The notes: generated by a model not told the origin, from the letters alone. Positions 5,738 through 35,667 are shown, counted from the first letter of the stretch. The stretch: DNA of 64,000 bases from Acidimicrobiaceae bacterium (GCA_028344675.1 JAOMBT010000004.1:4692-68691), one strand, 5' to 3'. Program-made: numbers and translations.

Positions 5738-6952
5738 ATCATTAATAATTTTTTTAGAAGTGAAATTACTATCAAAAGTTTTGTAATCAAAATTAAACTC
5801 ACCAAGTTCAAACACTTTTAAAAATTTATCAATTTCTTCATTTGATGTATTTTTGTTAATAATTTTAAAATTTTTAAATAAATCTTCAAATTCATATAAA
5901 GGGTCATCTTTAATTTCTGCAAAATGCAAGACTGGTTTACCTAGGGATATATATTCAATAACCTTACTTGGTAATTGATATTTATTAAAATTACCAATAG
6001 AGAGAAGAATATGCATTTCTTCTAACATAATCTTTGTTGCTTTATCTCTTGAAACTAAATCATAAATATTATGAATCTGATTGATACTAATTTTATTTAA
6101 GAATTTTTTTGATTCTTGGTTCGTATACCAAAAATGTTCAAATTTATCACTATAAAAATTATGGACAAGTTTTAAATAGTTTTCAGGGTCTCTAACTCTA
6201 TCAGTAAAAATTCCAAAGTATCCTATCTTCAAAGGTTTCTGAGAATAATTATAATTTATTGATTTTGAAAGTGAGTTTTTGTCAATTAACCCTATCGGGT
6301 ATCCATTCACTACTTTTGATGCTGGAATATCAAAATATTTCATATGTAATTCTGATGCTTCTTTATGTGTGAAAATAATTTTTGAAGCATTTTTATAATA
6401 TTTTTTTTCAATAAAACGATTGATAAATGAAAAAAGAAACTTGTTATTTTCAGATGAAAATTTTTTCAATGAAAAAGGATCTCCTATATCCATATACCAT
6501 TCTGCATTTAACCTTTTAGTTAGCAAGTAAGCACATACGTGAGAGGTAAAAGGAAGACTAATTGATATTATTATGTCATAGTCATCATGAATCTTTTTTT
6601 TATTTTTGTAAATTGTAAAAATCCAAAACATCGCATAGTCAGGCCAAGCAAAAGTTTTAAAAAGAAAACGATATATATGCTTTAGAATTCTAAATATCAA
6701 CTTTTTTAAGTTAGAACTTCTTGAATCATTAGAATTTTGTCGAACAGTATTAATGACACCTGATATGCTCTTATTGCCAAAATATAACACCTTGTAATTC
6801 TTAGCAGATGCTTGGGGTCTAGTACCTGAAAGAACTGTAATATCATTACCTTGATCTACAAGGTAATCAATTAATAAGCTCCACCTTGTAGTTCTCGGAC
6901 TTACATGTGGTAAAAATTGGTGTGTAACAATTAGTATTTTTTTATTTTTCAT
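5729..6952 (-). CDS. Putative glycosyltransferase (GT-B fold, GT4-like)
   Basis: N-terminus KILIVTHQFLPHVSPRTTRW and C-terminal LPSKVIEYISLGKPVLHF are typical of divergent group-1 glycosyltransferases. Soluble, located inside a glycan operon. Confidence 0.55.
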   Translation of the reverse strand: MKNKKILIVTHQFLPHVSPRTTRWSLLIDYLVDQGNDITVLSGTRPQASAKNYKVLYFGNKSISGVINTVRQNSNDSRSSNLKKLIFRILKHIYRFLFKTFAWPDYAMFWIFTIYKNKKKIHDDYDIIISISLPFTSHVCAYLLTKRLNAEWYMDIGDPFSLKKFSSENNKFLFSFINRFIEKKYYKNASKIIFTHKEASELHMKYFDIPASKVVNGYPIGLIDKNSLSKSINYNYSQKPLKIGYFGIFTDRVRDPENYLKLVHNFYSDKFEHFWYTNQESKKFLNKISINQIHNIYDLVSRDKATKIMLEEMHILLSIGNFNKYQLPSKVIEYISLGKPVLHFAEIKDDPLYEFEDLFKNFKIINKNTSNEEIDKFLKVFELGEFNFDYKTFDSNFTSKKIINDLS

Positions 6953-8318
6953 AATTTTTTAAATTTAGTCCAAAAGATATAGCTATTGCCAAATGTGTTG
7001 CCAATTCCTCTGCTTGGTAAGAATATACAAATAAAGTTGTAATAAAACTAATTAATAGATACGGCTGTAATGGCGTTGGTTTAAACACTATCTTTCTTAA
7101 AATTTCTATCAAAATATATAAAAACCAAAGTAAGCCCACCAAACCTGTAGACATTAAAATATTTGCATATAGATTATTAAATGACACCACCTGCCCAGGA
7201 TTTCTATAGATAATTTGATTTTCAACTAACTGCTTTCCAGCTTCATCAGCAGCATAAGAAAAAGCAATATTTGAATATCCATAGCCTTCTCCAAATAAGG
7301 AAAAGCCAGCATTTTGAATATATTCTAGAAGAAAAGCTGTGTTACCAAAGGCATCCAGACCTTGAGAGCTTATTTCCCTAAAGCGACCAAAGGTACCTTC
7401 TGAAAAACTAGATGAATTCTTTAACTCGTCTAACCTATCCTCTGGTGTGCAAACACACTCTAAACTATTAGCATTACAAGTATTTTCATCAGGTGGAAAT
7501 TGATATGAAAAAATACCAGAAGTAAAAATTACTAACAAGAAGATAGACAGCATTGATATAATATTTAATTCAAACTTCTTATGTAGTAGGTAAAGCAAAA
7601 CAGTAACTATGATGATTGCGGCAACAAATGCTATTATTCCAGTCAAACTTCTACTTAAAACAACACTAAAAATAGGAATTAAGGAGAGAGCATACCATAC
7701 CTTATTTTTCTTACCTAAATAAAAGAAATACGGAATGAATGGAACAGTCCATATAGCTAAGAAACTAGGTTCTCTAAAAGTTCCATAATTTCTTAAAATA
7801 TTGCATGCTCTTTGAATAGGCTGAGTCCAACCTCCAGAACCTGGTCTTGTTCTTGGAAAATCACTATAGCCATAGATATACGAAAAGTAACTAACAATAG
7901 AGAGTGTTGATATAACAATGCTAGATATCAAAAAGAATTTAAGTATTTTTTCAAAATCGTGTTTTTGTAAAATATAATTTATCGAATAAATAACAATCAA
8001 GAAAAGGAGTAATCTCAAGAGCCTTAAACTTATATATTGGAAGTAAGAGGTGCTTGCATATTTTGGAAGTATTAGATCATTAAAAAAAGATTGAATTAAA
8101 GTAATAAAAATTCCATAAATAATCCAATTTCTTATTGAGAATAAATTTAAATTAAATGTTCTTAACCCTAAAAAGTAACAAATTAAATAAACTACCGATA
8201 AAAAAGATACTCCGATCCAGTATATTGGAATATTTTGAATTGAAAAAGCATCCAGTCCCTCAAATACTAAAAATGCACTGAGTGAATATAACAATATATT
8301 TGAATATTTTAAATTCAA
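6942..8318 (-). CDS. Polytopic membrane protein, O-antigen polymerase/ligase-like (Wzy_C type)
   Basis: Ten or more hydrophobic segments. Contains an SRSLTGIIAFVAA motif, then a roughly 120-aa hydrophilic loop with CNANSLECVC, followed by FNNLYANILMSTGLVGL. Shares GTFREPSFL with the ORF at 51904-53259. TTG start overlaps the upstream stop by 4 nt. Confidence 0.6.
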   Translation of the reverse strand: MNLKYSNILLYSLSAFLVFEGLDAFSIQNIPIYWIGVSFLSVVYLICYFLGLRTFNLNLFSIRNWIIYGIFITLIQSFFNDLILPKYASTSYFQYISLRLLRLLLFLIVIYSINYILQKHDFEKILKFFLISSIVISTLSIVSYFSYIYGYSDFPRTRPGSGGWTQPIQRACNILRNYGTFREPSFLAIWTVPFIPYFFYLGKKNKVWYALSLIPIFSVVLSRSLTGIIAFVAAIIIVTVLLYLLHKKFELNIISMLSIFLLVIFTSGIFSYQFPPDENTCNANSLECVCTPEDRLDELKNSSSFSEGTFGRFREISSQGLDAFGNTAFLLEYIQNAGFSLFGEGYGYSNIAFSYAADEAGKQLVENQIIYRNPGQVVSFNNLYANILMSTGLVGLLWFLYILIEILRKIVFKPTPLQPYLLISFITTLFVYSYQAEELATHLAIAISFGLNLKNYEK

Positions 8319-18304: not shown

Positions 18305-19387
18305 TTAATCATTTAGGAGTTTTATATAATAATTTTCATAGTTAGAACTGGCAATATCAATGGAGAACTCTGATATTATTTTTTCTTTTTGTTTTTTTTG
18401 CACTTCTTTTTTAAAGTCTTCATCTTCTAATATTTTTTTTACTAAATTAGCTACTTCCTTGAAATTTTTTGAATCAACTAGGGTGCCATGTGTATTATCC
18501 ACAAATTCACTCAACGGTGCGATATTTGAACATATTACAGGAGTGTTATTCTCAATTGCTTCTAAAACAACTAGGCCAAAGCCTTCTGAATCTGATAGGA
18601 ATAAAAACAAATCAATTTTTGAAAAAAAATCGTCAATCATTTCGTAATGTTCATGGAAAGATACATAATCTTGAATGCCTTTTTTATTGACTAAATTAAT
18701 TAGAGTATTTTTATAATTAATATCATCTGAGCCAGCAAATATTAAATTAAAATTTACATTTTGTTCTTTTAGTATTACTGCAGTATCTATAACCCTATCC
18801 CAACCCTTCCATGGCAACATTCTTGCTGCCATTCCTATAGTGTTATTATTAGATAATTTTTCATCCCTATCATGTAGCTCTACTCCATAATGAACAGTTG
18901 TAATTAAATCTAAGTTAATTTTATGTTCCTCAACTAACCAGTTAGAAATTTTGTTTGAGATTGCAATAATTCCTTCAGATTGATTTAGGATAAATTTCCA
19001 AAATATGTTGAATACTGAATATTTTATTTTAGATTCATTAGTTCTTGTACCATACTGAGCATGAACTGAAATAATATGTATAAAATTCTTTTTTATAAAC
19101 TTAAGCAAACCAACAAAAAAGTCAGCTTTTGGAAGATGACTATGAACAATTTTATAATTATTCGTATTAATTAATTTATTAATTTCAAAAATATTAAAAA
19201 AACCATTTTTTGAATAAATATTGACGTCAACTAAATTTTGTTCTATTGAATTACCTTTTTTATAGAAATCACAAGTAAATATATCTATTTCAAAATTTTT
19301 AAAATTAGAAATTAAATTGGCTATTTGGACTTCTGCACCATCTTTTTTCAAAGTTGGGACAATATACAGTATTTTTTCTTTATTCAT
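18305..19387 (-). CDS. Glycosyltransferase family 4
   Basis: LSDSEGFGLVVLEAIENNTPVICSNIAPLSEFV is the E-x7-E region. I moved the start from 19453 to ATG 19387 (MNKEKILYIVPT). The longer form would overlap the upstream gene by 74 nt. Confidence 0.8.
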   Translation of the reverse strand: MNKEKILYIVPTLKKDGAEVQIANLISNFKNFEIDIFTCDFYKKGNSIEQNLVDVNIYSKNGFFNIFEINKLINTNNYKIVHSHLPKADFFVGLLKFIKKNFIHIISVHAQYGTRTNESKIKYSVFNIFWKFILNQSEGIIAISNKISNWLVEEHKINLDLITTVHYGVELHDRDEKLSNNNTIGMAARMLPWKGWDRVIDTAVILKEQNVNFNLIFAGSDDINYKNTLINLVNKKGIQDYVSFHEHYEMIDDFFSKIDLFLFLSDSEGFGLVVLEAIENNTPVICSNIAPLSEFVDNTHGTLVDSKNFKEVANLVKKILEDEDFKKEVQKKQKEKIISEFSIDIASSNYENYYIKLLND

Positions 19388-20543
19388 TTCTATCAAAAAG
19401 TAAATAATACACAAGCCATGAGACAGTGTGATTATGTAATAAGTCGCTTGCAAATCCTAAAATTAAAAAGGAAACAATACAAAGAGATACAGTATCATTT
19501 ATCAAAATTTTAAGATTTTGATTAATCAACATCTTAATAAATTTTTTAAAAATCCAAAGATATAATACAAAACCTATAAGTCCATATTTCAAAATAAAAA
19601 ATAAATAGGAATTATGAGGACCAGTAACTCGCAGGCTTTCGTCAAAATTTTCTATACTTCCAACACTGTCGTTAACTACACCTACATTATTAAAACCACT
19701 GCCCAATAGAAAACTTGGTAAATTCTGGTTTGATAAATATCCTGCAGTGGCCGTTTGCATTTCGATTCTATCTAGAATTCCTTCAGTTTCTTTTTCTGAA
19801 GAAAATCTTTCAATTAATCCAAAGTTTAAAACAAACAAAATAGAGAGTACTAAAGCTACAACATTTCTTATATCAAACTTTTGAAGTAGAATTATTAGCA
19901 TAAAAAAAGTAAGGACAAGCAGAGATGATCTTGAATAAGTAAAAAAACAAGAAAGAAAAGAGAGTACAACAATTATTGGCTTGATGCTATTTTTAACACT
20001 TGTTAGGGAGTAAAGTCCTAAAATACAAATTAAGTCACCGAAACTATTTGGTCCTCCTGCTTGAAAACCATTTATACGTCCGTGAGTAAATCCCCATTCA
20101 TTATTATTCAAACCAATATTCCAATAATTGTAAGCATCAGTTCCTAAATTCAATTGTAAAAAATAACTAAATATAGAAAAACATGATAAGAAATAAAATA
20201 AATAAATAGGAAGATTTAAAAAAAGCTTATTATCACTTTCAATTGTTTTAAAATGCAAAAAAATAACCAGGTACAATATGTATCGTAAAATTTCAGTATT
20301 GAAAGAGTTGTTGTACAAAAAAATATTTTGAAAAGAAATAAAAATTATAAATGCAAGAATAGGTATAGCAATTTTAAGATCATGAATTGTAATTTTCTTT
20401 AGTGAGTAAATGAAAAACAAAAAAAAATAAATGACTATTGGAAGATCATCAAAGTGAATCCATTCTAAATTTAAATCTATATGTGGAAATAATGGTATTA
20501 AAAATAAGAGGGAAATATAGTTATTCTTTAAGAACTTATTCAT
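19380..20543 (-). CDS. Polytopic membrane protein, O-antigen polymerase/ligase-like (Wzy_C type)
   Basis: About 10-11 hydrophobic segments. Contains YSRSSLLVLTFFM and GPHNSYLFFILKYGLIGFVL, which match the Wzy_C R-S and H-N-x-Y-L blocks. Its start overlaps the GT2 stop by 4 nt. Confidence 0.6.
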   Translation of the reverse strand: MNKFLKNNYISLLFLIPLFPHIDLNLEWIHFDDLPIVIYFFLFFIYSLKKITIHDLKIAIPILAFIIFISFQNIFLYNNSFNTEILRYILYLVIFLHFKTIESDNKLFLNLPIYLFYFLSCFSIFSYFLQLNLGTDAYNYWNIGLNNNEWGFTHGRINGFQAGGPNSFGDLICILGLYSLTSVKNSIKPIIVVLSFLSCFFTYSRSSLLVLTFFMLIILLQKFDIRNVVALVLSILFVLNFGLIERFSSEKETEGILDRIEMQTATAGYLSNQNLPSFLLGSGFNNVGVVNDSVGSIENFDESLRVTGPHNSYLFFILKYGLIGFVLYLWIFKKFIKMLINQNLKILINDTVSLCIVSFLILGFASDLLHNHTVSWLVYYLLFDRNE

Positions 20544-23296: not shown

Positions 23297-24457
23297 ATGA
23301 AAATATTAATTATAGTAGGGATATTCCCACCTGATATTGGTGGTCCTGCAACGTTTGTTCCTTTAATTGCTAAAGAACTCATAAATAACAACTATAGTGT
23401 CGAAGTTATATGTTTGTCTGACACTCTTGATCATGATGACAAAATATTTGAGTTTAAAATTCATAGAATAAAAAGGAGACAAAATTTAATTCTTAGATGG
23501 ATAGAAACAATATACAAAATAATTAAACATGGAAGAGAGAATGATTTATTGTTTGTTAATGGACTCCCAATGGAAAGCTACATAGCAAATCTTATAATTA
23601 GAAAAAAATCTCTAAGAAAAGTAGTTGGTGACTGGGCATGGGAAAGAGGAAGAAATCTAAACTTAACAACAGATGCCTTTGATGAATTTCAAAATAAATC
23701 CCATAATTTACATCTAGAAATTGCAAAATTTTCAAGAGGATGGACAGCTAAAAAAGTAGATTTAGTGATAACACCTTCCAAACATTTAAAATCAGTTGTA
23801 AACAATTGGGGGGTCAAAAAAGAGAAAATTAAAGTAATTTATAATGGAACAAAAATAATTCCAATAAATAGTAGATCTTTGGATGTCAAAGATATAAAGT
23901 TGATAACTGTTGGACGATTAGCTCCTTTTAAAAATATCGACAGAATTATAATGTCTCTTAAACAAATTGACTTTGAAGACAACAATATTAAATTATTTAT
24001 TGTTGGTGATGGCCCTGAACGACAAAATTTAGAGATACTAGTTAAGAAATTAAAATTAGAAAATCATGTTGTCTTCACTGGACAACTAGTAGAAGATGAA
24101 TTAAATAAACACTATAAAGACTCAGATATATATATTCAAGCATCGGGCTATGAAGGGTTGCCTCATACACTACTTGAAGCAATTAGTCATAATCTTTCAA
24201 TTATTTCAACACCAATTGGTGGAACGAATGAAATATTAGAAAATAATACAAATGGATGGACAATTGAACTAATAGGAGGAAAATACCCTTCTGAAAAAGA
24301 AATTGCAGAAAAGGTAAATTATATTTTAAATAATAAACAAGAAGATGAAATTAAAAAAATCAGAGCAAGGGAACTGCTTATTGAAAATTTTGATAAAAAT
24401 ATAAATTTTGAGAAATATATAGATACGATAGAAAGTTTCAATAAAAATGCAAAATAA
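23297..24457 (+). CDS. Glycosyltransferase family 4
   Basis: N-terminus MKILIIVGIFPPDIGGPA. C-terminal SGYEGLPHTLLEAISHNLSIISTPIGGTNEIL. Confidence 0.85.
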   Translation: MKILIIVGIFPPDIGGPATFVPLIAKELINNNYSVEVICLSDTLDHDDKIFEFKIHRIKRRQNLILRWIETIYKIIKHGRENDLLFVNGLPMESYIANLIIRKKSLRKVVGDWAWERGRNLNLTTDAFDEFQNKSHNLHLEIAKFSRGWTAKKVDLVITPSKHLKSVVNNWGVKKEKIKVIYNGTKIIPINSRSLDVKDIKLITVGRLAPFKNIDRIIMSLKQIDFEDNNIKLFIVGDGPERQNLEILVKKLKLENHVVFTGQLVEDELNKHYKDSDIYIQASGYEGLPHTLLEAISHNLSIISTPIGGTNEILENNTNGWTIELIGGKYPSEKEIAEKVNYILNNKQEDEIKKIRARELLIENFDKNINFEKYIDTIESFNKNAK

Positions 24458-25592
24458 AACAAATATACTTTTTTTTGGAACTACTGATTATGGGTTTGAA
24501 CTTTCGAAAAGCGATGAAAATAAATTTAAAGAATTGAATACAAAACTAAATATTTTTGTTTTCACATATGGTATGGAAAATAAAGAAATTGATTTTGGGA
24601 TAGTAAAAATCAAATATTTAAAAAAACCCAAATCATTAATATTTAAATATATAAAATTTTATTTCTTGAGTATTTTTCAACTAAATAAATTTATTTCTGA
24701 AAATAATATTTCAGTTGTATCCTCTAAAGAACCTATTTCTGCCTTAAGTCCAGTGCTAATTAAATTATTTCTTAACAAAAATATTAAAATAATTATCGAA
24801 AACCACGGAGATTTTAGAGAACAACTACTACAGCAAAGAGATTCAATTTTTATATCAAAAAGTCTTTTTCTAACAGAGTTTATTATTAAATTTGTTTTTA
24901 AACATCTTGATATGTTGCGAGGTGTTAATAAGCAAAACTCAGAATATTTCAAAAAATATAATAAAAATATTTCTATATATAACTTTCCTGCTTGGATTGA
25001 TTCTTCTATCTTTACGTATACAGAAAAAGGTAAACGCAATGATATACTTTTTGTTGGAAATATCATTAGACGTAAAGGTATTAATTTTTTAATAGAATCT
25101 ATTAGCCCATTTTTAAAGAAAAACAAACATATAACATTTCGTATTGTTGGCAATAAAGAGGACCAAAAATATTTTTTGGAATTGAAGGATTTAATAAAAA
25201 AACACAATCTTAATGAAAGAATTATATTTCTGGAAGAAGCAACTCGAATTGAAATTGCTAAATTAATGAATAACTCAAAAGTACTAGTAATGGGAAGTAC
25301 ATCAGAAGGATTACCAAGAGTACTTATTGAAGCTGGATTTTGTGGCTTACCTGCAGTAGCAACAAAAATTGATGGAATATATGATCCTTTTTCTACAATT
25401 GGTGGGACTCTTGTTTTTGATTTGCATGCAAAAGAAGAATTCATAGAACATCTTGAGAAAGTTTATTTTAATAAGAACATCTGGAATGATAAAAGTAAAT
25501 TATCTTTTAAATTATCAAACTCAATTTCTGGTAATGGAAAATTTGTAAACAACTGGGTAAAAATGATTGAAATTATGGATCCTAATTTATGA
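24447..25592 (+). CDS. Glycosyltransferase family 4
   Basis: GSTSEGLPRVLIEAGFCGLPAVATKIDG is the E-x7-E region. 11-nt overlap with the upstream GT. Confidence 0.8.
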   Translation: MQNKTNILFFGTTDYGFELSKSDENKFKELNTKLNIFVFTYGMENKEIDFGIVKIKYLKKPKSLIFKYIKFYFLSIFQLNKFISENNISVVSSKEPISALSPVLIKLFLNKNIKIIIENHGDFREQLLQQRDSIFISKSLFLTEFIIKFVFKHLDMLRGVNKQNSEYFKKYNKNISIYNFPAWIDSSIFTYTEKGKRNDILFVGNIIRRKGINFLIESISPFLKKNKHITFRIVGNKEDQKYFLELKDLIKKHNLNERIIFLEEATRIEIAKLMNNSKVLVMGSTSEGLPRVLIEAGFCGLPAVATKIDGIYDPFSTIGGTLVFDLHAKEEFIEHLEKVYFNKNIWNDKSKLSFKLSNSISGNGKFVNNWVKMIEIMDPNL

Positions 25593-26650
25593 ATGATAGA
25601 TTACTAATTCTAAATCTAGGTATTGATAGCGATAATACTTCGCTTGCTTTTACACAAACTTGGGTTAATGAATTATCACAATATTATAAAGAAATAGACG
25701 TAATTACATTGAGAGTGGGAACTAAATACAAACTAAATAAAAATGTCAATTTACATTACATAAACAACAAAAATTCAAATAAATCTAAAAGCAAACAAAT
25801 TATTGACTTATACAAAATTAGTAAAAAGTTAATTAATAACAATAAATACATACACTGCTTCGCACATATGGCACCACTTCAGCATTTGTTAGCAAAATAT
25901 TTTCTACATAAAAATAAAATTAAAACTACTTTATGGTTTACACACATAGGGCCAAAGTTTGGAATAAAGTGGATAATTTTATGGTTATCATCATTTTTAG
26001 CTGATAATATTGTTACTGCATCAAAGAATTCATTTCCTTTTAAATTCAATAACATAATAATTACAGGACATGGTATCAATTTTGAACAATTCTTTAACAC
26101 TAAGGAAAAATTCGAGTTAAAAAATTTTTTAATACTAAGTAGAATATCAAAATCAAAAAATATTGAAAATACAATAGAGAATTTTAAAAAAATTACAAAT
26201 TTTGAAAAATGTAAACTAGATATTATTGGCGGAACATTAAATAGCAATGACGAAGAATACTTAGAGTATCTAAAAACAAAATATTTTCAATATAAAAATA
26301 TTCAGTTTTTAGGAAAAAAATCTCACGATACCCTTCCCGAAATTTTAAAAAAATATGATGTAAGCATAAATAATACTTCCATGGGATTTTTCGATAAAGC
26401 TGTTCTTGAAAGCGCAGCAGGAGGTTTAATTTGTTTTTACAAATCTAATGATTTTAATTTTCTCTATCAGGAATCATTCCAAAAAATTTTACTTTTTAAA
26501 GAAGACAATCTTTATGAAAAAATTAATCTTCTTTCATTACAATCAAATACTTCGATAATAGAGTCCATACAACATTCACAAAAAGAAGCAGAAAAGCATT
26601 CTTTAAATAATGTAACAACTAAATTAGTTAAAATTTTTAATTCAAATTAG
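25589..26650 (+). CDS. Putative glycosyltransferase (GT-B fold)
   Basis: Weak C-terminal GFFDKAVLESAAGGLICF pattern. Third gene in a GT run, with an ATGA overlap to the upstream gene. Confidence 0.5.
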   Translation: MNDRLLILNLGIDSDNTSLAFTQTWVNELSQYYKEIDVITLRVGTKYKLNKNVNLHYINNKNSNKSKSKQIIDLYKISKKLINNNKYIHCFAHMAPLQHLLAKYFLHKNKIKTTLWFTHIGPKFGIKWIILWLSSFLADNIVTASKNSFPFKFNNIIITGHGINFEQFFNTKEKFELKNFLILSRISKSKNIENTIENFKKITNFEKCKLDIIGGTLNSNDEEYLEYLKTKYFQYKNIQFLGKKSHDTLPEILKKYDVSINNTSMGFFDKAVLESAAGGLICFYKSNDFNFLYQESFQKILLFKEDNLYEKINLLSLQSNTSIIESIQHSQKEAEKHSLNNVTTKLVKIFNSN

Positions 26651-27569
26651 CTTTAACCCAACCTATAGTTTTATTTAAACCCTCTTCTAATCCAATATCA
26701 GGTTTCCAGTCAAGTATGTTTTTTGCTTTACTTATATCTGGTTTTCTTTGAGTAGGGTCATCATCAGGTAATTCTTGATAGTTTACTCCAGATTTTGATT
26801 CAGTAAGTTGAACTATGGTTTCTGCTAGTTGCAGAATTGTTATTTCATTTGGATTACCAATATTAAAGACTTCATTACTTTCTGAATCCATTGCTTTAAT
26901 TATTCCAGCAACGGTGTCACTTACATAACAGAAGCTTCTTGTTTGGTTCCCTTTTCCATAAATTGTTATATCTTCTCCATTTAATGCTTGAACTATAAAA
27001 TTTGTCACAACTCTTCCATCATTTAATTTCATTTTTGGACCATAGGTATTAAATAATCTAACAATCCTTGAATCAATATTATAAATTCGGTTATAACTTG
27101 ATACTGCTGCTTCAGCAAACCTCTTCGCCTCATCATACATACTGCGTACACCATTAGGATTAACTCTCCCCCAGTAGGACTCCGGTTGAGGTGAGATTTC
27201 TGGATCTCCATATACTTCTGAAGTAGAGGTTAACAAATATTTAGCATGTTTTGCTTTTGCTAAACCTAAAGTGTTTATAGTCCCAATACTCCCTGCTTTA
27301 AGAGTATTAATTGGATTATCAGTATAGGCTTTTGGAGAGGCTGCACTTGCAAGATGCAAAACATAGTCAACTTCTCCGTCTATTTGTATATGATTTTGTA
27401 CATCTAGGTCAATAAAAGAAAAGTTTTTAGATTTAGTGAAATTATCCAAATTTGCTTTTAAGCCAGTTAGAAGATTATCTACAACAATTACATTGTGGCT
27501 TTTTTCAAGAAACTTTTCTACAAGATGTGTCCCAATAAAGCCCGCCCCACCAGTTATTACAATATTCAA
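26637..27569 (-). CDS. UDP-glucuronate decarboxylase (UDP-xylose synthase, UXS-type SDR)
   Basis: ITGGAGFIGTHL, TSTSEVYGDP, YDEAKRFAEA, RLFNTYGPKM and DGRVVTNFIVQAL match the UXS signature blocks. TTG start 1 nt after the ugd stop. Confidence 0.8.
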   Translation of the reverse strand: MNIVITGGAGFIGTHLVEKFLEKSHNVIVVDNLLTGLKANLDNFTKSKNFSFIDLDVQNHIQIDGEVDYVLHLASAASPKAYTDNPINTLKAGSIGTINTLGLAKAKHAKYLLTSTSEVYGDPEISPQPESYWGRVNPNGVRSMYDEAKRFAEAAVSSYNRIYNIDSRIVRLFNTYGPKMKLNDGRVVTNFIVQALNGEDITIYGKGNQTRSFCYVSDTVAGIIKAMDSESNEVFNIGNPNEITILQLAETIVQLTESKSGVNYQELPDDDPTQRKPDISKAKNILDWKPDIGLEEGLNKTIGWVKANLN

Positions 27570-27570
27570 T

Positions 27571-28776
27571 TTATTCCCACATCTTAAGCATAAAAGTATT
27601 GTTAAGAGACCTAATTTTTGATATCAGTATTTTTCTTTCATCAGAAACATCAGGAAACATTTCTACATATAAACAGTTAGCTTTTAAATCATCTAATTTA
27701 GCAATAAAAGAATAATCGCTATTTAAATCAATATTTTTATCAAAAATAACAATATTTAATCCTTTATTTTGTAATCTGTCATAGATTTTAAGAGTAGGTG
27801 ATTCGCGTAAATCATCTGTATTTTCTTTAAATGCAGCACCAATTAATACAATGCTGTCTATGTCTTGCTGATTTGCGATATTAAATAAATTTTCAGAAAA
27901 CCAGTCCATTTGCAATTCGTTAGATTCAATTATTTTTGAAATAAGCGGTAATTTATTTTGACCATTATAAGAGTTTTCAACCTCTTTTACATCTTTAGGA
28001 AAACAAGATCCACCCCATCCAGGAGAGGGTCTAAAATAATTATTACCGATTCTGATATCTTTACCTATCGCATTAAGAACTTCTAAAGGGTTTCCACCGT
28101 TATCTTTAACTAACCTATATGTCTCATTAACAAATGACAGTCTCATTGCTAAGTACGTATTTGACAAATATTTTATCATTTGTGAACTTATTGGATCTGT
28201 GGAAATTAATTCACAATCAAAGTCTTTATACAAATTAAGACATTTTTGAATTACATCATTATCTTGCCCTCCTACAACCACTCTATCTGGATTAAAAAAA
28301 TCATCGAGTGCGGAACCCTCTCTTAAAAATTCAGGATTAAATACTATTTTACTGAAGTCAATATCGATTTTGTTACAAATTTCCTCAACTAATTGACTTT
28401 TTACTGTTGACTTTATACAAATATTAAAATTATATTTTTCAAGTTCTTTTAATTTTTCTAATACACTTTTTATAAACTTAGTGTCAGTTTTTCCAGAATC
28501 TAAGTTTGTTGGTGTTTGAACACAAACAAAAACTAATTCTGTATCTTTATCTATACCTGATTCATATTCACTACAGTAATTAATGTTCTCAATTACTAAT
28601 TTATCATTTATATACTTTTGTAAATCTGGTTCATAAAATGGAAGTTCAAAATTCTTTAGTTTTTCAATTAGAGAAGTGTTTAGGTCAATAATGGAGACTC
28701 TGTTGTTTAGTTTAGCAAAACCAATTCCTGTAATTAATCCCACATATCCAGCACCGATTATTGAGATATTCATCAT
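27571..28776 (-). CDS. ugd: UDP-glucose 6-dehydrogenase
   Basis: IIGAGYVGLITG, NPEFLREGSA and catalytic GGSCFPKD. Directly upstream of the UXS gene. Confidence 0.85.
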   Translation of the reverse strand: MMNISIIGAGYVGLITGIGFAKLNNRVSIIDLNTSLIEKLKNFELPFYEPDLQKYINDKLVIENINYCSEYESGIDKDTELVFVCVQTPTNLDSGKTDTKFIKSVLEKLKELEKYNFNICIKSTVKSQLVEEICNKIDIDFSKIVFNPEFLREGSALDDFFNPDRVVVGGQDNDVIQKCLNLYKDFDCELISTDPISSQMIKYLSNTYLAMRLSFVNETYRLVKDNGGNPLEVLNAIGKDIRIGNNYFRPSPGWGGSCFPKDVKEVENSYNGQNKLPLISKIIESNELQMDWFSENLFNIANQQDIDSIVLIGAAFKENTDDLRESPTLKIYDRLQNKGLNIVIFDKNIDLNSDYSFIAKLDDLKANCLYVEMFPDVSDERKILISKIRSLNNTFMLKMWE

Positions 28777-28834
28777 ATTTATAATACATAAATATAGTTT
28801 ATAGATTTAAGTTAAAATTATTAATGAAACTTGT

Positions 28835-29932
28835 ATGATATATTTTTTAGCACATTCAGATTGGATACTTTTTAATTCAAGAAAAGAAATAGCAACACAT
28901 TTAAATGAACTGGATTATTCAGTTAATGCTATAACAACTGAAGAGGCATATAAGGAAGATTTAAAAAAGTACTTTAATAGCTTCTATAAGTGGAAAGTTG
29001 ATAGAAATAAACTTGTTGACTTAAAAGGGATAATTAATCTTAGAAAAATTTTAAAACAGCTTACTGAAAACGATATATTACATGTTTTTACACTTAAATC
29101 TGGATTGTATGTCTTATTTGCCTCCCATTTTATGAAAAAAAAATATAGAGTTGTATTATCTATTACCGGTCTAGGATATTTATTTTCAAAAAATAACGGC
29201 AGCAAAGTCTTAAGGAATATTTTGAGATTTTATATGAAATATTTTTTTAATAGAAATATTGATGTACTAATTTTCCAAAATCACAAAGATGAAAAAGTAT
29301 TTAAAAACTATTTAAATTATAAAAATCAAACATTTCTAATTAAAGGTAGCGGTTTAAACTTACCAAGTTTTTCTTTAAAGAGTTACGAAGATAGTAGGGA
29401 TAAAGAAATAAAAATTATTATGTGTTGTAGATTACTAAAAGATAAAGGGATTGATGAATATTTCAAATTAACGCAATTGTTTGATAATAATAAATACAAA
29501 TTCTATTTAGCTGGCAATGTAGATCCAGGAAACCCTTCGTCATATTCTCAAAGGGATATAGTAAATCTTACAAAGAAATTTAATATCGAATATTTAGGAT
29601 GGATAAATACAACAAAAGAACTTAAAAATTTTGATATTTCTGTTTGCATGTCCTATCACGAAGGTCTGCCAAGAATAGTTTTAGAGTCTCTCTATATTGG
29701 TTTATATACTATATCTAATAATTTACCTGGATTGAGAAATATATTTGATGAATATGACAATGGAATATTGATAAGCGAAAACAATTTATTAGAGTTTCGT
29801 AATGCAATTACAAATTTTGTAGAGATAGAAAATATCACAAACAAAATACAGTATTCACGACAAAAAGTAACAGCTAATTTTTCAACTGAAACAATTGTTG
29901 AAGAATTTATAAAAGTATATAAAATATTATGA
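28835..29932 (+). CDS. Glycosyltransferase family 4
   Basis: SYHEGLPRIVLESLYIGLYTISNNLPGLRNIF is the E-x7-E region. Confidence 0.75.
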   Translation: MIYFLAHSDWILFNSRKEIATHLNELDYSVNAITTEEAYKEDLKKYFNSFYKWKVDRNKLVDLKGIINLRKILKQLTENDILHVFTLKSGLYVLFASHFMKKKYRVVLSITGLGYLFSKNNGSKVLRNILRFYMKYFFNRNIDVLIFQNHKDEKVFKNYLNYKNQTFLIKGSGLNLPSFSLKSYEDSRDKEIKIIMCCRLLKDKGIDEYFKLTQLFDNNKYKFYLAGNVDPGNPSSYSQRDIVNLTKKFNIEYLGWINTTKELKNFDISVCMSYHEGLPRIVLESLYIGLYTISNNLPGLRNIFDEYDNGILISENNLLEFRNAITNFVEIENITNKIQYSRQKVTANFSTETIVEEFIKVYKIL

Positions 29933-30963
29933 AAGAATTTCAACTTTCCATCTTTGTAGTATTCTTTATTGGTCTATTCATTTCACTGGTATTAAACAAA
30001 TTGTCACTAAGTTTTAAGGGGTATTTTAAACAAGGTAATAGAGAGGATGAAATCAGATTATCAAATGTAAAAATACCAACGTTTGGTGGAATATCTATGT
30101 CTTTAGCTTTTTTGATATCGATAAGACTTCTTGGGAAAGTTGATTCTGAAATTATTCAGATTGCTATCTATGCAGTTTTTATCACCTTAATAGGTTTCCT
30201 TGATGATAGATATAATTTAAATTGGAAACTAAAACTGTCTTTACAATTTTTTGCTGTAAGTACACCTATTTATTTACTTAACATATATCTAAATATTGAA
30301 ATGCTGATAGGTGTAAATTTTAGTAATAATTTGAATATTTTAATCACTATTATTTGGATAATACTTTTAGTTAATTCTTTAAATTTTTTAGACAATATGG
30401 ATGGTTTAGCTGCAACTACTGCAACGATGATAGCGTTCAGTCTTGCGATTCTAAGTTACATTACAAATCAATACAAATTGACAGATATTTCCGTCGTTTT
30501 AATAGCATCAATGCTGGGGTTTTTAATTTATAATTTGCCAGATGCAAGGCTCTATATGGGTGATTCTGGGAGTCTTTTTATAGGCTATTGCCTTGGTTTT
30601 ATAAGTGTGTTATTTTCTTGGAATAACAGTATTGAAAGTTCTTGGATTTTTCAAATTCAGCCAGTAATTTTGTTTTTTACAATACCCCTTATTGATTTCA
30701 CGACTGTGATAATTTCTAGAATTAAACAGGGTAAATCACCAATGACTGGCGGTACTGATCATATTTCGCATAGGTTATTAAAAAAAGGGTACTCAAATAA
30801 TCAAGTATTAATAATTTTTATATTCATGTCAATAATTGTACTAGTAGTAACTATGGGGATTCTTTATCTTAACCAAACATTGTCTTTTTTATTCTTGATT
30901 CTGTATGCGTTCTTGGTATTTGCAGCTTTGTTCTATTTCCTTAGATTAGAAATTCTAAATTAG
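29929..30963 (+). CDS. wecA: Polyprenol-phosphate N-acetylhexosamine-1-phosphate transferase (WecA/TagO, MraY-like family)
   Basis: About 10-11 TM segments. Contains DDRYNL, NFLDNMDGLA and MGDSGSLFIGY, the Glycos_transf_4 motifs. Confidence 0.85.
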   Translation: MKEFQLSIFVVFFIGLFISLVLNKLSLSFKGYFKQGNREDEIRLSNVKIPTFGGISMSLAFLISIRLLGKVDSEIIQIAIYAVFITLIGFLDDRYNLNWKLKLSLQFFAVSTPIYLLNIYLNIEMLIGVNFSNNLNILITIIWIILLVNSLNFLDNMDGLAATTATMIAFSLAILSYITNQYKLTDISVVLIASMLGFLIYNLPDARLYMGDSGSLFIGYCLGFISVLFSWNNSIESSWIFQIQPVILFFTIPLIDFTTVIISRIKQGKSPMTGGTDHISHRLLKKGYSNNQVLIIFIFMSIIVLVVTMGILYLNQTLSFLFLILYAFLVFAALFYFLRLEILN

Positions 30964-31659
30964 GCTTTCGTATTTTTCTACCGCCTCCGGAGTTCCAGCA
31001 TCTATCCACCATCCATTGATAATTTGATAGCTTAAATTATCAATATTTAAATATCTAGTAAGCAAACTCGTAATTTCATACTCTCCTCTAGAGGATGGTT
31101 CAATAGATTTAATATATTCAAAGCAATTCCCATCTAGAAAATAAAAGCCTACTGCAATCAAATTTGATTTAGGTAATTTTGGTTTTTCTTCAAATGATAA
31201 TATATTATTGTTAGCTAGCTCAACTACACCAAATTCCTGAGGGTTCTCAACTTCCATCAAAAATACAGTAGGTTTTTCTGATTCATAATTTGTATCTAAA
31301 ATTGGATTAAATTCAAAAAAATTATCACCTAGTATATAAAAAACTTTTGAGTTTTTTTCTACCTTTTCGTTTGCCTGAAGTAGTGCATGGGCAACCCCTA
31401 GTTGCTCATCTTGAATTACATATTCAATATTTTGATTTGGAAAATTTTTACATACTTCGTTTTTAATTAAATCATCAAAATTTGGATTAGTAATAATTAT
31501 GAAATTATCAAGACCCCAGGAAATAAGCTGCTTTAATTGGTGGGTTATCATAGCTTCTCCATTAATTTGTAAAAGCATTTTAGTAGCATCATTTTTTCTG
31601 AAATTTAGTAATCGCTTTCCTAAACCGCCTGCAGCAATAACTGTGTAAATTTTTGTCAT
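30955..31659 (-). CDS. Sugar-1-phosphate nucleotidyltransferase (RmlA/GalU-like, short form)
   Basis: IAAGGLGKRL, LGVAHAL, EKPKLPKSN and RGEYEITS are NTP_transferase motifs. Confidence 0.75.
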   Translation of the reverse strand: MTKIYTVIAAGGLGKRLLNFRKNDATKMLLQINGEAMITHQLKQLISWGLDNFIIITNPNFDDLIKNEVCKNFPNQNIEYVIQDEQLGVAHALLQANEKVEKNSKVFYILGDNFFEFNPILDTNYESEKPTVFLMEVENPQEFGVVELANNNILSFEEKPKLPKSNLIAVGFYFLDGNCFEYIKSIEPSSRGEYEITSLLTRYLNIDNLSYQIINGWWIDAGTPEAVEKYESLI

Positions 31660-31715
31660 AATTTATCTTTTTATATCTTTTAATTAACTCCTATGATTAT
31701 AGTTGTTGTTTGGAA

Positions 31716-32828
31716 ATGAAAAATAGAAATATATTATTGGGTATTGTTATTATTGCTATTTCTGTTGGTGGTGTATTAATCTACAATCTAATTCCACAAT
31801 TTGAAACTACTGAATTTGATCAAGAATCAATTATCCAAATAAGTGAAGGTGCTACGACAACTATTAGTTCATCAGATACTTCACCAAGTACAACTACTAC
31901 AGATGTTTTTGATGAAGAACTAATTGATATTCAACCTTCAAAAATTCAAACTATACTTGCAAATAATTCTACAAATGACATATCTGAATATTTTGAAACC
32001 TATCTATTAGTAGGTTCCGATAAAAGAAGTAAAGATAGTTCACTTTCAAGAGGATTTGTGCCAGGTCAGAGAGCAGATGTTATTATCCTTGCCCTAATCA
32101 GCAAGGATGATGAATCAGTCTCATTAGTCTCACTTCCAAGAGATTTACTCATAAAAAACCCTTGTACAGACGAGATACAAAGAATTAATTCAACTTTTCA
32201 AAAAAATGATTGTGGTAATGCAGCTGAAAATTTGTCTGCAACTATTTTAAATGTTACTGGTTTACTTGTAGATAATTTTGCATTGTTTACTTTCGAAGGT
32301 TTTGAAAAGATTATTGATGCATTAAATGGAGTAGAGATATGTCTACAAAAAGCACAGAGAGAGGGTTACTCATTTGAGCTTAATGCAGGATGTCAGATAG
32401 CTAAAGGTAGTGTTGCTTTGAATTGGGTTGTCTCAAGAAACACTGAAATAATGGTTGGCGAAAAAATACTAGATGAAAATGGAAATGATGCTTCAATTTG
32501 GGAACCAATGGCTGGAATAAGTGATTTGTATAGAGTAAAAAAACAACAAGAAATAGTAATTTCTTTACTAAACAGATTGAATGAGTTTAATTCATACACC
32601 GACTTATATAATCTAATTAAAGCTTTAGAACTAACCTTCACAATTGATGAAAACTTAACAATTCCTAATGCTACTCAATTATTGTGGGGGTATAGAAATT
32701 TTAATTTTGCTGAAGTGACAAAACTTACAGTTCCAACTCAACCTTATAGAACTCAAGATGGCAAGGAAGTTCTAGTATTAACAGAAAATTTCTATAATTT
32801 TATAATTTCTCAAGATCTTCTTGATTAA
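31716..32828 (+). CDS. LytR-CpsA-Psr (LCP) family glycopolymer-to-peptidoglycan phosphotransferase
   Basis: N-terminal TM anchor, a Ser/Thr-rich linker (SSSDTSPSTTTT), then YLLVGSDKRS, RADVIILALI and SLPRDL. ATG 31716 is preferred to TTG 31710. Confidence 0.85.
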   Translation: MKNRNILLGIVIIAISVGGVLIYNLIPQFETTEFDQESIIQISEGATTTISSSDTSPSTTTTDVFDEELIDIQPSKIQTILANNSTNDISEYFETYLLVGSDKRSKDSSLSRGFVPGQRADVIILALISKDDESVSLVSLPRDLLIKNPCTDEIQRINSTFQKNDCGNAAENLSATILNVTGLLVDNFALFTFEGFEKIIDALNGVEICLQKAQREGYSFELNAGCQIAKGSVALNWVVSRNTEIMVGEKILDENGNDASIWEPMAGISDLYRVKKQQEIVISLLNRLNEFNSYTDLYNLIKALELTFTIDENLTIPNATQLLWGYRNFNFAEVTKLTVPTQPYRTQDGKEVLVLTENFYNFIISQDLLD

Positions 32829-35238
32829 TTTTTGAATCTTTTAATCCAAGTAAAAGTGTAAATAATATCATTGCATCAGGAGAGTAAATCAAATCATTTG
32901 TAATATTGTGAATTAAAAAATAAAGTAGGCAAATATTTAAAATTATTAAAGAATCATTTTTTTTATAATTAAATTTTTTAAATACTAGATAAATAAGTGG
33001 TGTAAAAAAAATTAATCCCTTTAATAACCCATATTCAACAAAAAAAGTTAGATACCCATTATGAGCAGTTGTAAGTTGGCTTAAAAAAGCACTACTAACT
33101 ATAGGTGCTTGATCATTATCAAGCTTCCCATTTTTTTGAACTAAAACACCTGACCTTAGACTCATGTCCCCTACTTGATTCACATATTCACCATCTGAAT
33201 TTGTCCAACTTAAAAATAGTCTTCCATCATCAATATCTACTTTCCAAGACTGAACATCATCAGTAAACGCAGAGGTATTTGAAATTAGTGTTTGAGTTTC
33301 CCAAGGAATTTCAGGTAATGAAACTTCCAAAATAATTTCAAAATCTTCATTAAAATTAAATTCGTTATCTATAGCTAGCCAGTATTTATTTGGTCTAAGT
33401 AGTTGAATGCCATTATCATCAAAAATAACATTTCCCTTATATTTTCTTAAAGAATTTACTTCATAAAGAGAATATTCATTATTTAGTCCATTTTTTTCGA
33501 AATTAATTTTTTTAATCTTATCATCATTTATTATTTCAAGAGATTTTACACTTCCATCTAGCCAAGTATTACCAAAAGATTGTCCATCAACAAATCCTCC
33601 TATTTCGATAACACCATCATTTTTATTGAATTCAATAATTTCACCTGTATAGTGTGGAAAACCTACCAAATCCCAACTGACTCCATCTCCAGATGTATAA
33701 AAGCTAATTTTTGACCTAGGTAATAAATAATCATATTTGTCATATGCTATTTTTATAAAACCCTTTATATTTCTAAATTCACACTCATTACAAATCTTGT
33801 AAAGATTTTCTTCTGGTAATACAGTATTTCTTATAAATAAAGATTCAGTAATTACAGCTAATTCGCCAATTGCTAATGGTCTGTCTTTACATGAGTAAAC
33901 CTTATTAACCTCGCATTCAACAAATATATTATTCGAGTACAAATAACTAAAATATGAATTATGCAAACTTTCTTTATCTATATCCTCGAAACTAAATATC
34001 TGAAAATCTGAAGATAAAATTCTTAATTCGTATGCTATACAAGCAAATTCGCCTCTAGTAACTAAATTTTGATCATTATTAGCTCTACAATTATTAAGAA
34101 CAGTTTCGAGTTTTATATTATTACTAATATCAAAAATTTGAAGAAAATTTAATACTGTGTCAGCGTCAACTCTAAAATATTGACATGTGTCTCTGTCATC
34201 AGAACATGGTTTTGTAATGAAATACTGCTGTAAGATTTCAAAACCACCACCAGATGTTCCAATAAAAAAGTCTATATCAGTATCTCTATATTCTTCAGGG
34301 GTTATCCCCAACTCAACTTTATTTAATTTAATATTTAAGTTCTCTTCAAGTATTTCTGGATTAATCGATAATAAATAAGGCTCATAGATTTTATTTATAT
34401 ACTCCCCACCACCAACACCATCGAATACTTCTATATTTGAAATAGCAATATTAGCAAGTAAAGATCGGTCATTTTCTTTTAATATATAACTTGACGGACC
34501 AAAATACAATAAGCTCATAACAATTGCAGCTAACCCAGATACATAAAAAATTTGAATTTTTGTAGAATTAATTTTTAAAAATATGAATACGATTGATACA
34601 AATATAAATGCTAAGTAACTACCTCTTGAAAAAGTTAATAAAAATAAAAATAAATTTATAAAAGCAAAAGAAAAATAATACTTTTTATCAGTAGTTTTAT
34701 AAGTGTAAAAAAACAAAATAGATAACAGTCCAAAAATTGTTCCAGCAACATTGGGGCCAGAACCTTGAAATCCAGAAAGCCTTCCAGATAAAAATATATT
34801 TGTAGTATCAGAATAATTTGTAATCCATCCTATAGAATTTCCTAAAAAAGATTGTTGGGTTAAGAATGCTGCAATGCTAAAAATACTTACAATGATTAAA
34901 GAATCAAAAATTACCGATATTTCACTATCACTTAATTTATTAAGGACTTTTTTGAATAAAAAGCCAAGTGTTACGTAAAGTACAAACCTAAGAGTTGTTG
35001 TGTTGAATCCATCAAAAATAAAAAATAAAATTAAACAAAAAATTGTAAATATCCATGCAAAATCTTCTTTTTTCTTTATCTCGAAATTTTTAAATGATAG
35101 AAATAATAGATAAATAAATAACAAAATTATTGGAATATCTGAAAATTCTAAAATTGCAATTTTTCCAATACTAGGGGGAATTATTAGAGAAAGACTAAGT
35201 AGGCTTCCAATCAATCTTAAGCTTGTATTTTTATACAT
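32800..35238 (-). CDS. 812-aa Wzy_C/O-antigen-ligase-like membrane protein with a roughly 480-aa extracytoplasmic insertion (Cys-rich region plus concanavalin/LamG-like beta-sandwich sequence)
   Basis: Residues 1-246 have about 9 TM segments, including FSRGSYLAFIF. Residues ~247-725 are hydrophilic with 8 Cys, and include ...FEIILEVSLPEIPWETQTLISNTS...WKVDIDDGRLFLSWTNSDGEY, a LamG_3-like pattern. Then come AHNGYLTFFVEYGLLKGL plus 2-3 C-terminal TM segments. Confidence 0.6.
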   Translation of the reverse strand: MYKNTSLRLIGSLLSLSLIIPPSIGKIAILEFSDIPIILLFIYLLFLSFKNFEIKKKEDFAWIFTIFCLILFFIFDGFNTTTLRFVLYVTLGFLFKKVLNKLSDSEISVIFDSLIIVSIFSIAAFLTQQSFLGNSIGWITNYSDTTNIFLSGRLSGFQGSGPNVAGTIFGLLSILFFYTYKTTDKKYYFSFAFINLFLFLLTFSRGSYLAFIFVSIVFIFLKINSTKIQIFYVSGLAAIVMSLLYFGPSSYILKENDRSLLANIAISNIEVFDGVGGGEYINKIYEPYLLSINPEILEENLNIKLNKVELGITPEEYRDTDIDFFIGTSGGGFEILQQYFITKPCSDDRDTCQYFRVDADTVLNFLQIFDISNNIKLETVLNNCRANNDQNLVTRGEFACIAYELRILSSDFQIFSFEDIDKESLHNSYFSYLYSNNIFVECEVNKVYSCKDRPLAIGELAVITESLFIRNTVLPEENLYKICNECEFRNIKGFIKIAYDKYDYLLPRSKISFYTSGDGVSWDLVGFPHYTGEIIEFNKNDGVIEIGGFVDGQSFGNTWLDGSVKSLEIINDDKIKKINFEKNGLNNEYSLYEVNSLRKYKGNVIFDDNGIQLLRPNKYWLAIDNEFNFNEDFEIILEVSLPEIPWETQTLISNTSAFTDDVQSWKVDIDDGRLFLSWTNSDGEYVNQVGDMSLRSGVLVQKNGKLDNDQAPIVSSAFLSQLTTAHNGYLTFFVEYGLLKGLIFFTPLIYLVFKKFNYKKNDSLIILNICLLYFLIHNITNDLIYSPDAMILFTLLLGLKDSKINQEDLEKL

Positions 35239-35255
35239 TTGTTTTTCTAAGCAAG

Positions 35256-35329
35256 TGGGCCTGGCAGGACTCGAACCTACGACCGACGGATTATGAGTCC
35301 GTTGCTCTAACCAACTGAGCTACAGGCCC
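35256..35329 (-). tRNA. tRNA-Met (anticodon CAT), elongator-type; a tRNA-Ile2 (lysidine) identity is not excluded
   Basis: The reverse complement folds as a cloverleaf: acceptor GGGCCTG/CAGGCCC, D-arm GCTC-AGTTGGTTA-GAGC, anticodon arm ACGGA-CTCATAA-TCCGT, T-loop GGTTCGAGTCC. G1:C72 and the absence of a 3xGC anticodon stem rule out an initiator. CCA is not encoded. Confidence 0.9.
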
Positions 35330-35623: not shown

Positions 35624-35667
35624 ATTCCTCCATTCAATTCAATTATAGTGACATTTTAAATGTAAAG

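Follow-up and report, generated by a model that had tools for sequence, protein, structure and literature searches.

Enzymes of the Wzy_C family (WaaL, Wzy, TacL, TuaE, PglL) act on undecaprenyl-diphosphate (Und-PP)-linked glycans at the outer face of the membrane. WaaL, Wzy, TacL and PglL decide the makeup of the bacterial surface, and their acceptor recognition and length control are poorly understood, in part because recognition seems to be the work of short, variable loops. Escherichia coli WaaL has 12 transmembrane (TM) helices, with an arginine in the short loop that leads to TM8 and a histidine ending the TM9-TM10 loop, and the large loop of WaaL and Wzy proteins faces outward. Here we describe a gene at positions 32800..35238 (minus strand) of a 64,000-nucleotide stretch of DNA from an Acidimicrobiaceae bacterium (GCA_028344675.1, JAOMBT010000004.1:4692-68691; this whole stretch is called the window below). 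Its 812-amino acid product is very probably a 12-helix Wzy_C enzyme whose catalytic loop between helices 9 and 10 (R205 to H726) holds about 420 extra residues, arranged as two modules.

In Streptococcus pneumoniae the Wzy_C protein TacL loads the teichoic-acid chain on a glycolipid, and LytR-CpsA-Psr (LCP) enzymes put the same Und-PP precursor on peptidoglycan (PMC5727136). The 812-amino acid protein resembles TacL and WaaL in having a Wzy_C domain, a polytopic membrane core, and a conserved arginine together with a histidine that ends a large outer loop; as TacL works beside LCP enzymes in a Gram-positive envelope (PMC5727136), so the gene described here is paired with an LCP gene. It differs from TacL (397 amino acids) and E. 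coli RfaL (419 amino acids), in which the loop is short and mostly helical (PMC5727136), by the ~420 extra residues and their two modules, and no similarity to solved WaaL was detected by sequence or by Foldseek; the comparison with TacL is by description. In the teichuronic-acid operon of Bacillus subtilis, which includes a UDP-glucose dehydrogenase, TuaE is the Wzy_C polymerase (PMC11841062). The present protein shares the Wzy_C domain with TuaE and Wzy, and its gene has an initiating transferase, family 1 glycosyltransferases (GT1s) and a UDP-glucose dehydrogenase as neighbors. A recent review gives Wzy proteins 10-14 TM helices and a pair of moderate periplasmic loops, and the part of it used here makes no mention of an extra folded domain (PMC12004945). 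A Wzy usually has a separate polysaccharide co-polymerase (PCP/Wzz), whereas none was found among the annotated island open reading frames (ORFs) here, and the gene is fixed in position rather than borne on a cassette.

The gene is complete, with an ATG start and an intact ORF, and its coordinates and length were as the initial annotation of this DNA had given them. A protein search returned 233 relatives of the product, at least 120 of them full length (799-822 amino acids, 46-97% identity) and obtained independently through ENA, JGI, Tara and NCBI, single-cell genomes included. Scanning of genomes located the gene in 12 genomes, single-cell genomes or metagenome-assembled genomes (MAGs) of Candidatus Actinomarina/OCS155, plus one remoter Actinomycetota MAG. 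The oddly long size for a Wzy_C protein and the low-GC, metagenome-type sequence had raised the prior possibility that an assembly or frameshift artefact fused two genes, and nothing else was found in favor of this. Over 120 full-length orthologs (799-834 amino acids) were obtained independently from four source databases and include single-cell genomes, the two Wzy_C halves bracket the insertion in every one of them, and the final three TM helices with the histidine motif would be of no use as a separate gene. We regard a fusion as practically out of the question; it is ruled out by the orthologs, by synteny and by the contiguous Wzy_C match that appears after deletion of the insertion (see below).

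The Pfam Wzy_C profile (PF04932) has a length of 149 and a gathering threshold of 31.7 bits. Against it the intact protein scored 20 bits (E 6e-4) over residues 192-247, which cover the N-terminal part of the profile only. When residues 290-712 were deleted in silico, four family members matched profile positions 2/3 to 148/149 as one stretch, at 21.8 (the window protein), 31.3, 42.0 and 31.5 bits, and 37 of the 44 aligned orthologs matched Wzy_C at E ≤ 0.01 (best E 5e-9). The hit proposed from the sequence was thus found for the family, contiguous after deletion, while the window protein itself stayed below threshold. The nearest relative of the membrane core was a canonical Wzy_C paralog of 387 amino acids, lacking the insertion, encoded in the same window (19380..20543, minus strand; Pfam 41.1 bits); hhalign aligned it with the insertion-less core over 321 columns (probability 98.2%, E 4.6e-14). 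Both carry the motifs GR(L/I)xGFQxxGPN, SRxS and HNxYL, and the AHNGY region of the long protein (SQLTTAHNGYL) aligns with TGPHNSYL of the paralog. The FSRGS (R205) and AHNGY (H726) motifs were invariant in the 44-sequence alignment, at the 12 genome loci and in long forms at 33-40% identity, which bore out the proposal of a second Wzy_C block before the final TM helices. Shorter relatives (described below) carry precomputed PF04932 matches and the NCBI name 'O-antigen ligase family protein'. Membership of the 812-amino acid protein in the Wzy_C superfamily is therefore supported by the sequence homology of its family and core, through the deletion constructs, the orthologs and the paralog.

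An AlphaFold2 model of the full-length protein, built on the 44-sequence alignment, had 12 TM helices, a mean predicted local distance difference test score (pLDDT) of 73 and a predicted TM-score (pTM) of 0.59; hydropathy peaks likewise spoke for a polytopic membrane protein. It placed FSRGS between helices 7 and 8 and the large loop between helices 9 and 10. The motif FSRGSYLAFIF is as first described, and seven helices precede it in the model rather than about nine. Averaged over the family, lysine and arginine came to ~8.6 in the 30 'in' short-loop residues versus ~2.0 in the 58 'out' residues. This positive-inside pattern, together with the eight invariant cysteines described below, supports the outward-facing orientation of the insertion that had been proposed, as a computed prediction.

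The protein can be laid out in six parts, all on the minus strand. The N-terminal TM core (residues 1-246, helices 1-9; 34501..35238) contains R205 of FSRGS at nt 34624-34626 and the start of the Wzy_C match at residue 192. The native part of the outer loop (residues 247-303; 34330..34500), with the motifs LKENDRSLL and GVGGGxY, is kept by the short form and partly alignable to the paralog. It is followed by a module specific to the long form (residues ~304-489; 33772..34329), which holds eight cysteines and is helical in both AlphaFold2 models (the full-length one and one of the insertion alone), and by a beta-sandwich domain of 13 strands (residues ~490-700; 33139..33771) recognized through AlphaFold2 and Foldseek. 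A linker and amphipathic helix (residues 701-730; 33049..33138) bears the second Wzy_C motif, SQLTTAHNGYL, with H726 at nt 33061-33063, and the C-terminal TM core (residues 731-812, helices 10-12; 32800..33048), with the conserved outer motif NxTNDLIYSPD, brings the Wzy_C match to position 148/149. The loop had been said to run from residue ~247 to ~725. A huge insertion does split the Wzy_C fold, but since the 387-amino acid paralog spans the junction free of gaps, the true insertion is only ~290-712, and ~247-289 and ~713-725 are native loop. Residues 247-337 had a mean column identity of 0.82, the histidine linker (701-730) one of 0.83 and the beta domain one of 0.75, as against 0.61 in both the TM core and the cysteine-bearing helical region; the outer parts (0.75-0.83) are thus better conserved than the TM core.

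The N-terminal core has one further conserved outer loop (residues 127-160), with the invariant motif GWI...GRLxGFQGxGPNVAG. In the more general form GWI...GR(L/I)xGFQ(G/A)(S/G)GPN(V/S)xG (nt ~34759-34860) it is common to long forms, short forms and the 387-amino acid paralog, and it may define a subfamily of Wzy_C. The AlphaFold2 confidence at this loop was very low (pLDDT < 50).

Both AlphaFold2 models resolved the insertion into the helical region (~304-489), with all eight loop cysteines, and the 13-strand beta domain (~490-700). The protein has ten cysteines, eight in the loop (345, 352, 384, 400, 442, 450, 483 and 486; in KPC, DTC, NNC, FAC, VEC, YSC, KIC and NEC, all of which had been listed correctly) and only two elsewhere, in TM helices (68 and 770). 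The eight were invariant in the 44-ortholog alignment, at the 12 genome loci and in long forms at 33-40% identity, and they are presumably disulfide-bonded. The initial annotation had described a single Cys-rich, lectin-like insertion; it is Cys-rich and large, but the cysteines lie in the helical module, separate from the beta-sandwich. The two modules are separable, and a whole sister lineage lacks the helical one.

The helical module begins with a conserved stretch, KVELGITPEEYR...FFIGTSGGGFEILQQ, which is followed by the helical region with all eight cysteines. Foldseek matched the module to the S-layer homology (SLH) domain of Bacillus anthracis Sap (3pyw; probability 0.94, TM-score 0.48, 169 columns), and in the module LVTRGEFACIAYEL stands in register with the SLH 'ITRAEAA' motif. 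To this likeness are opposed the cysteines, in which the helical module is rich and SLH domains are not. An hhalign comparison with five SLH motifs from solved structures gave E 0.09 (0.093) over 13 columns, not significant beside controls at 0.2-0.6. No significant internal repeat was found in the module, Pfam SLH matched neither the window protein nor any of 16 family members, and no gene for a CsaB-type pyruvyl-transferase was among the annotated island ORFs. With hhalign near the controls and no repeat, we did not accept an SLH identity for the module and keep it as a lead only.

The beta-sandwich carries the invariant motifs LPRS, DGQSFGNT, PNKYW, QSW, IDDGR and SLRSG. With the full-length model Foldseek retrieved concanavalin A (ConA)-type legume lectins (E 0.03, probability ~0.9, TM-score 0.30). 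With the insertion alone it retrieved a glycoside hydrolase family 16 (GH16) (1-3,1-4)-beta-glucanase (1ajo; E 1.3e-3, probability 0.89, TM-score 0.34) and, again, ConA lectins (probability 0.75-0.96, TM-score 0.30-0.36, rmsd 7-12 Å). The initial annotation had proposed concanavalin/LamG-type beta-sandwiches. Thirteen strands and weak ConA-like matches were indeed found, but the Laminin_G_3, discoidin and carbohydrate-binding module (CBM) families of Pfam gave no match to the insertion of the window protein at E ≤ 1. Across 16 members at E ≤ 10 no Pfam family was matched by more than one member, which is noise only, and NCBIfam matched neither the 812-amino acid protein nor its insertion. The 13 strands and the repeated retrieval of ConA-type lectins and a GH16 glucanase are set against E-values of 1.3e-3 or higher, TM-scores of 0.30-0.36, the absence of LamG, discoidin and CBM matches from all 16 members and the lack of a GH16 catalytic motif; the modelled domain is weakly consistent with the ConA-like lectin/glucanase superfamily.

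GH16 enzymes have the catalytic strand motif ExDx(x)E. The beta-sandwich might itself be catalytic, as a GH16-like transglycosylase or hydrolase that remodels or cross-links the polymer after transfer, given that the best single match of the insertion was a GH16 glucanase and that the acidic residues E545, D551, E634, D670 and D671 are invariant. Inspection of the alignment, however, showed no ExDx(x)E, the nearest sequence being (N/E)-D632-F-E634 with E631 not conserved, and the TM-score to 1ajo is just 0.34, with lectins of the superfamily scoring as well. As the catalytic motif is missing we rejected GH16-type catalysis, which appears very improbable.

The first strands of the beta domain also have matches outside the family. 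Eight proteins of 731-1788 amino acids (P0175, P0184, P0185, P0186, P0189, P0190, P0195 and P0201) align with the insertion profile at positions ~245-320 only ('LPRSKISFYTSxDGxxW...GGxxDGQSFGN'), and they do so in 3-6 repeats of this stretch. No Pfam family was found at the matched stretch in the six that were scanned (P0175, P0184, P0185, P0186, P0189 and P0190), and in P0197 the stretch adjoins a CBM_4_9 domain. The large proteins offered no hint of function; the stretch may be a repeat not described before.

Searching 1.84 billion representative proteins with the insertion profile (HMMER) gave 84 matches at E ≤ 1e-3, and the complete insertion was present in only ~7 clusters, all of 802-829 amino acids. 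Wzy_C proteins with the beta domain only were also found (P0127 and P0130, the latter of 662 amino acids). A search with the core profile then defined a large sister family of 655-664 amino acids, named 'O-antigen ligase family protein [Acidimicrobiia bacterium]' at NCBI, and this ~660-amino acid short form is abundant in marine Acidimicrobiia. Window residues 304-460 and 481-487 have no counterpart in the short forms, whose outer domain is free of cysteines, and the beta-sandwich is present in long and short forms alike. They lie at the same orthologous locus, with matching housekeeping flank and downstream block; this context was taken from P0253 and P0221, the contig of P0130 being merely 2.1 kb. 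The flank of short-form genomes was 70-75% (GlyRS) and ~50% (DnaG) identical to that of the window, against 66% and 57% for the long-form locus L015 and 60% and 41% for the long-form locus L010. As short-form genomes thus fall between closer and remoter long-form genomes, the long form is probably ancestral and the cysteine module lost once, by this rough, distance-based sequence comparison. The long and short proteins at one orthologous locus amount to a natural domain-deletion comparison.

Gene order was constant in every locus examined, in both forms: UppS, GlyRS, DnaG, tRNA-Asn, SCP2, tRNA-Met, the Wzy_C gene, LCP, NTP-transferase, a WecA-like family 4 glycosyltransferase (GT4), GT1, UDP-glucose dehydrogenase, epimerase, GT1 and GT1. 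In the window the LCP gene (31710..32828, plus strand; Pfam 8.7e-23), for a glycopolymer-to-peptidoglycan transferase, is convergent with the Wzy_C gene, and their 3' ends overlap by 29 nt (32800-32828), which leaves no room for an intergenic terminator. The two genes overlap by 11-40 nt at L014, L015, L016 and L017, and this convergent, 3'-overlapping pairing is kept from 97% to 33% identity, short forms included. On the other side, tRNA-Met (CAU; 35255..35329, minus strand) lies 16 nt upstream of the ATG. A Shine-Dalgarno sequence is not obvious in the spacer between the tRNA 3' end and the ATG (35239-35254; cttgcttagaaaaacaaATG). As the tRNA abuts the ORF in 12 of 12 loci, this arrangement suggests that the Wzy_C gene is co-transcribed with tRNA-Met and that 3' processing of the tRNA yields a near-leaderless mRNA.

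Beyond LCP the conserved glycan block spans 24447..31659, its genes assigned by Pfam and syntenic in every locus. It comprises NTP-transferase (30955-31659, minus), the WecA-like GT4 (29929-30963, plus), GT1 (28835-29932, plus), UDP-glucose dehydrogenase (27571-28776, minus), epimerase (26637-27569, minus) and two further GT1s (25589-26650 and 24447-25592, both plus). No flippase lies within the block. Elsewhere in the window, a distal cassette combines the sole Wzx flippase (9921-11132, minus) with a second canonical-size Wzy_C-like protein of 458 amino acids (6942..8318, minus; Pfam 27.2 bits, below the cutoff), whose relation to the 812-amino acid core was undetectable, and, by annotation, with a Bac_transf initiating transferase, the second in the island (13036-13659, plus). 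The island within the window therefore encodes three Wzy_C proteins, one Wzx, two initiating transferases and many glycosyltransferases and sugar-nucleotide enzymes. Neither a PCP/Wzz chain-length regulator nor an ABC exporter was found among its annotated ORFs, and the island may extend past the window.

Because the characterised Wzy_C enzymes all do so, the 812-amino acid protein would, by analogy, be expected to act on an Und-PP-linked glycan at the outer face through its R205/H726 site. The anatomy described above is solid, the folds are assigned with weak to moderate support, and the function is one we infer from context only. We tentatively prefer, as quite possible though short of an even chance, that the protein is a TacL/WaaL-like terminal ligase of a conserved cell-wall glycopolymer pathway with a built-in acceptor-binding domain. 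The pathway served would be the order-wide one of the WecA-like GT4, the GT1s and UDP-glucose dehydrogenase. The ligase would move the finished Und-PP-linked chain onto a non-peptidoglycan acceptor, a membrane glycolipid or other envelope component, and the adjacent LCP enzyme would put the same precursor onto peptidoglycan. The strongly conserved beta-sandwich would hold either the acceptor, itself conserved, or the glycan as it arrives, and the cysteine-bearing helical module would be an accessory that binds wall or glycan and that one lineage has given up. Standing directly before the histidine-bearing helix, the beta-sandwich would be positioned above the active site. It is also the best conserved of the additions, and its most plausible ligand is a conserved glycan partner.

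A Wzy/TuaE-like polymerase with a built-in processivity or chain-length device, replacing the Wzz/PCP co-polymerase, is a real possibility that we hold with some doubt. Here the growing chain would be gripped by the inserted beta-sandwich, alone or together with the helical module, and the polymer would probably contain uronic acid. The block of initiating transferase, GT1s, UDP-glucose dehydrogenase, Wzy_C and LCP genes parallels the tua operon, the annotated ORFs include no PCP/Wzz-type protein, the island has a Wzx flippase, and the core is most closely related to a paralog of canonical size that sits in a variable cassette, as is typical of polymerases. The same paralog can be read the other way, for its place in the variable part is the usual site of serotype-specific polymerases, which slightly favors a ligase for the fixed gene. 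A ligase is likewise slightly favored over a polymerase by the excess of Wzy_C proteins over flippases, with two canonical candidates already there and only one Wzx detected, itself outside the conserved block. The gene, moreover, is locked beside LCP order-wide and the outer domains are more conserved than the core, whereas polymerases are usually variable and serotype-specific.

PglL-type O-oligosaccharyltransferases also belong to the Wzy_C family and share its Arg/His loop logic. An enzyme of this type, transferring Und-PP-linked glycans to Ser/Thr of surface proteins with the modules recognizing the protein acceptor, would accord with that shared logic, and a large folded recognition domain suits a macromolecular acceptor. 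The conserved neighborhood, however, includes no pilin or S-layer acceptor gene, the gene is tightly paired with those for LCP and the wall polymer, and the beta domain is like carbohydrate-binding or -processing folds and unlike protein-binding ones; we consider this reading improbable.

Several points weigh against the preferred account of a Wzy_C ligase with an acceptor-binding domain. The window protein's own Wzy_C score lies below the 31.7-bit cutoff both intact (20.0 bits) and with the insertion deleted (21.8 bits), searches of PDB sequences with the full and insertion-less profiles gave nothing meaningful among solved structures, and Foldseek with the full-length model retrieved neither WaaL nor any other Wzy_C structure. 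Model quality is moderate (pLDDT 73 for the full protein, 69.5 for the insertion alone), with the best-conserved loops the least confident, and the ConA-like TM-scores are only 0.30-0.36. The conserved block, with its UDP-glucose dehydrogenase, GT1s and Wzy_C gene, is equally like the tua operon with its TuaE polymerase (PMC11841062), and the absence of a chain-length regulator from the annotated island ORFs would fit a polymerase that has its ruler built in. The source organism is uncultured, and no candidate acceptor was identified.

The gene's position had been given as the last of the island, abutting a tRNA-Met boundary. That boundary was confirmed as the edge of a described flexible genomic island, fGI1, the 'glycotype' island of the order, whose bacteria have a wall structure described as unknown (PMC7771536); tRNA-Met and the Wzy_C gene are the tRNA-bounded edge of fGI1. 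The gene does adjoin the boundary, but it is not itself flexible content; its block was present and syntenic in all genomes examined, though diverging much faster than the housekeeping flank. We compared the divergence of this block (24447-35238) with that of the flank (35336-42933). At L002, L003 and L008 the flank was 84-91% identical to the window while the glycan block was 38-53% (Wzy_C gene 45-46%, LCP 52-53%; 46% and 53% at L002), and at L001 and L009 the flank was less similar (66-84%) and the block more so (63-75%). This discordance suggests, from sequence comparison, that the whole syntenic block was allelically replaced across the tRNA boundary or is under strong diversifying selection.

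Some other features of the window were seen in passing. A 255-amino acid ORF (24677-25444, minus) lies wholly within the GT1 gene at 24447-25592, on the opposite strand, and is probably a spurious product of AT-rich sequence. Between the 458-amino acid Wzy_C-like gene and the Wzx gene is the gene for a 537-amino acid protein (8315-9928, minus) with a C-terminal heparinase II/III-like domain (Pfam 2.2e-11), which could be a polysaccharide lyase or an epimerase-like modifier. The small SCP2 sterol/lipid-carrier-like protein gene (35336-35623, minus) lies directly upstream of the Wzy_C gene, between tRNA-Asn and tRNA-Met, in every genome, and a 7TM receptor that bears an HD hydrolase domain is encoded in the housekeeping flank (39836-42001, minus).

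The mycobacterial arabinosyltransferases EmbA/B/C and AftD are polytopic proteins of the GT-C fold that use polyprenyl-linked donors at the outer face and carry extracytoplasmic lectin-like or CBM beta-sandwiches implicated in acceptor binding and chain-length control. They serve as an analogy only, since their fold and donor type are different and their CBMs are terminal or in other loops; no homology of the 812-amino acid protein to EmbA/B/C or AftD was detected. In the literature searched we came upon no account of a folded domain lying within a Wzy_C catalytic loop, in line with the view of the initial annotation that this architecture had not been characterised. Membership in the Wzy_C family was already known, relatives being annotated as 'O-antigen ligase family protein'. 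New here are the build of the insertion from two modules, the natural pairing of long and short forms at a single locus, and the confinement of the cysteine module to a few clusters.

With no Pfam family and only a handful of sequence clusters, the insertion is a candidate for new domain definitions. For the Wzy_C enzymes, a folded module of ~210-400 residues in the catalytic loop, conserved above the core, is a separable handle that could be expressed for binding studies. A more far-reaching version, a 'ligase-with-reader' in which nested ConA-like and SLH-like, disulfide-locked modules dock on a wall or glycolipid acceptor or measure the chain, seems to us rather unlikely, if conceivable. 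If true, it would be a new class of Gram-positive envelope enzyme, merging in one polypeptide the job of WaaL/TacL (or Wzy) with a separate recognition or chain-length factor. The Wzy_C gene and its LCP partner form the fixed anchor in the single flexible island, the one facing phages, of a lineage abundant in the ocean, and an enzyme of this kind would define the envelope architecture of the abundant marine Actinomarinales/Acidimicrobiia.

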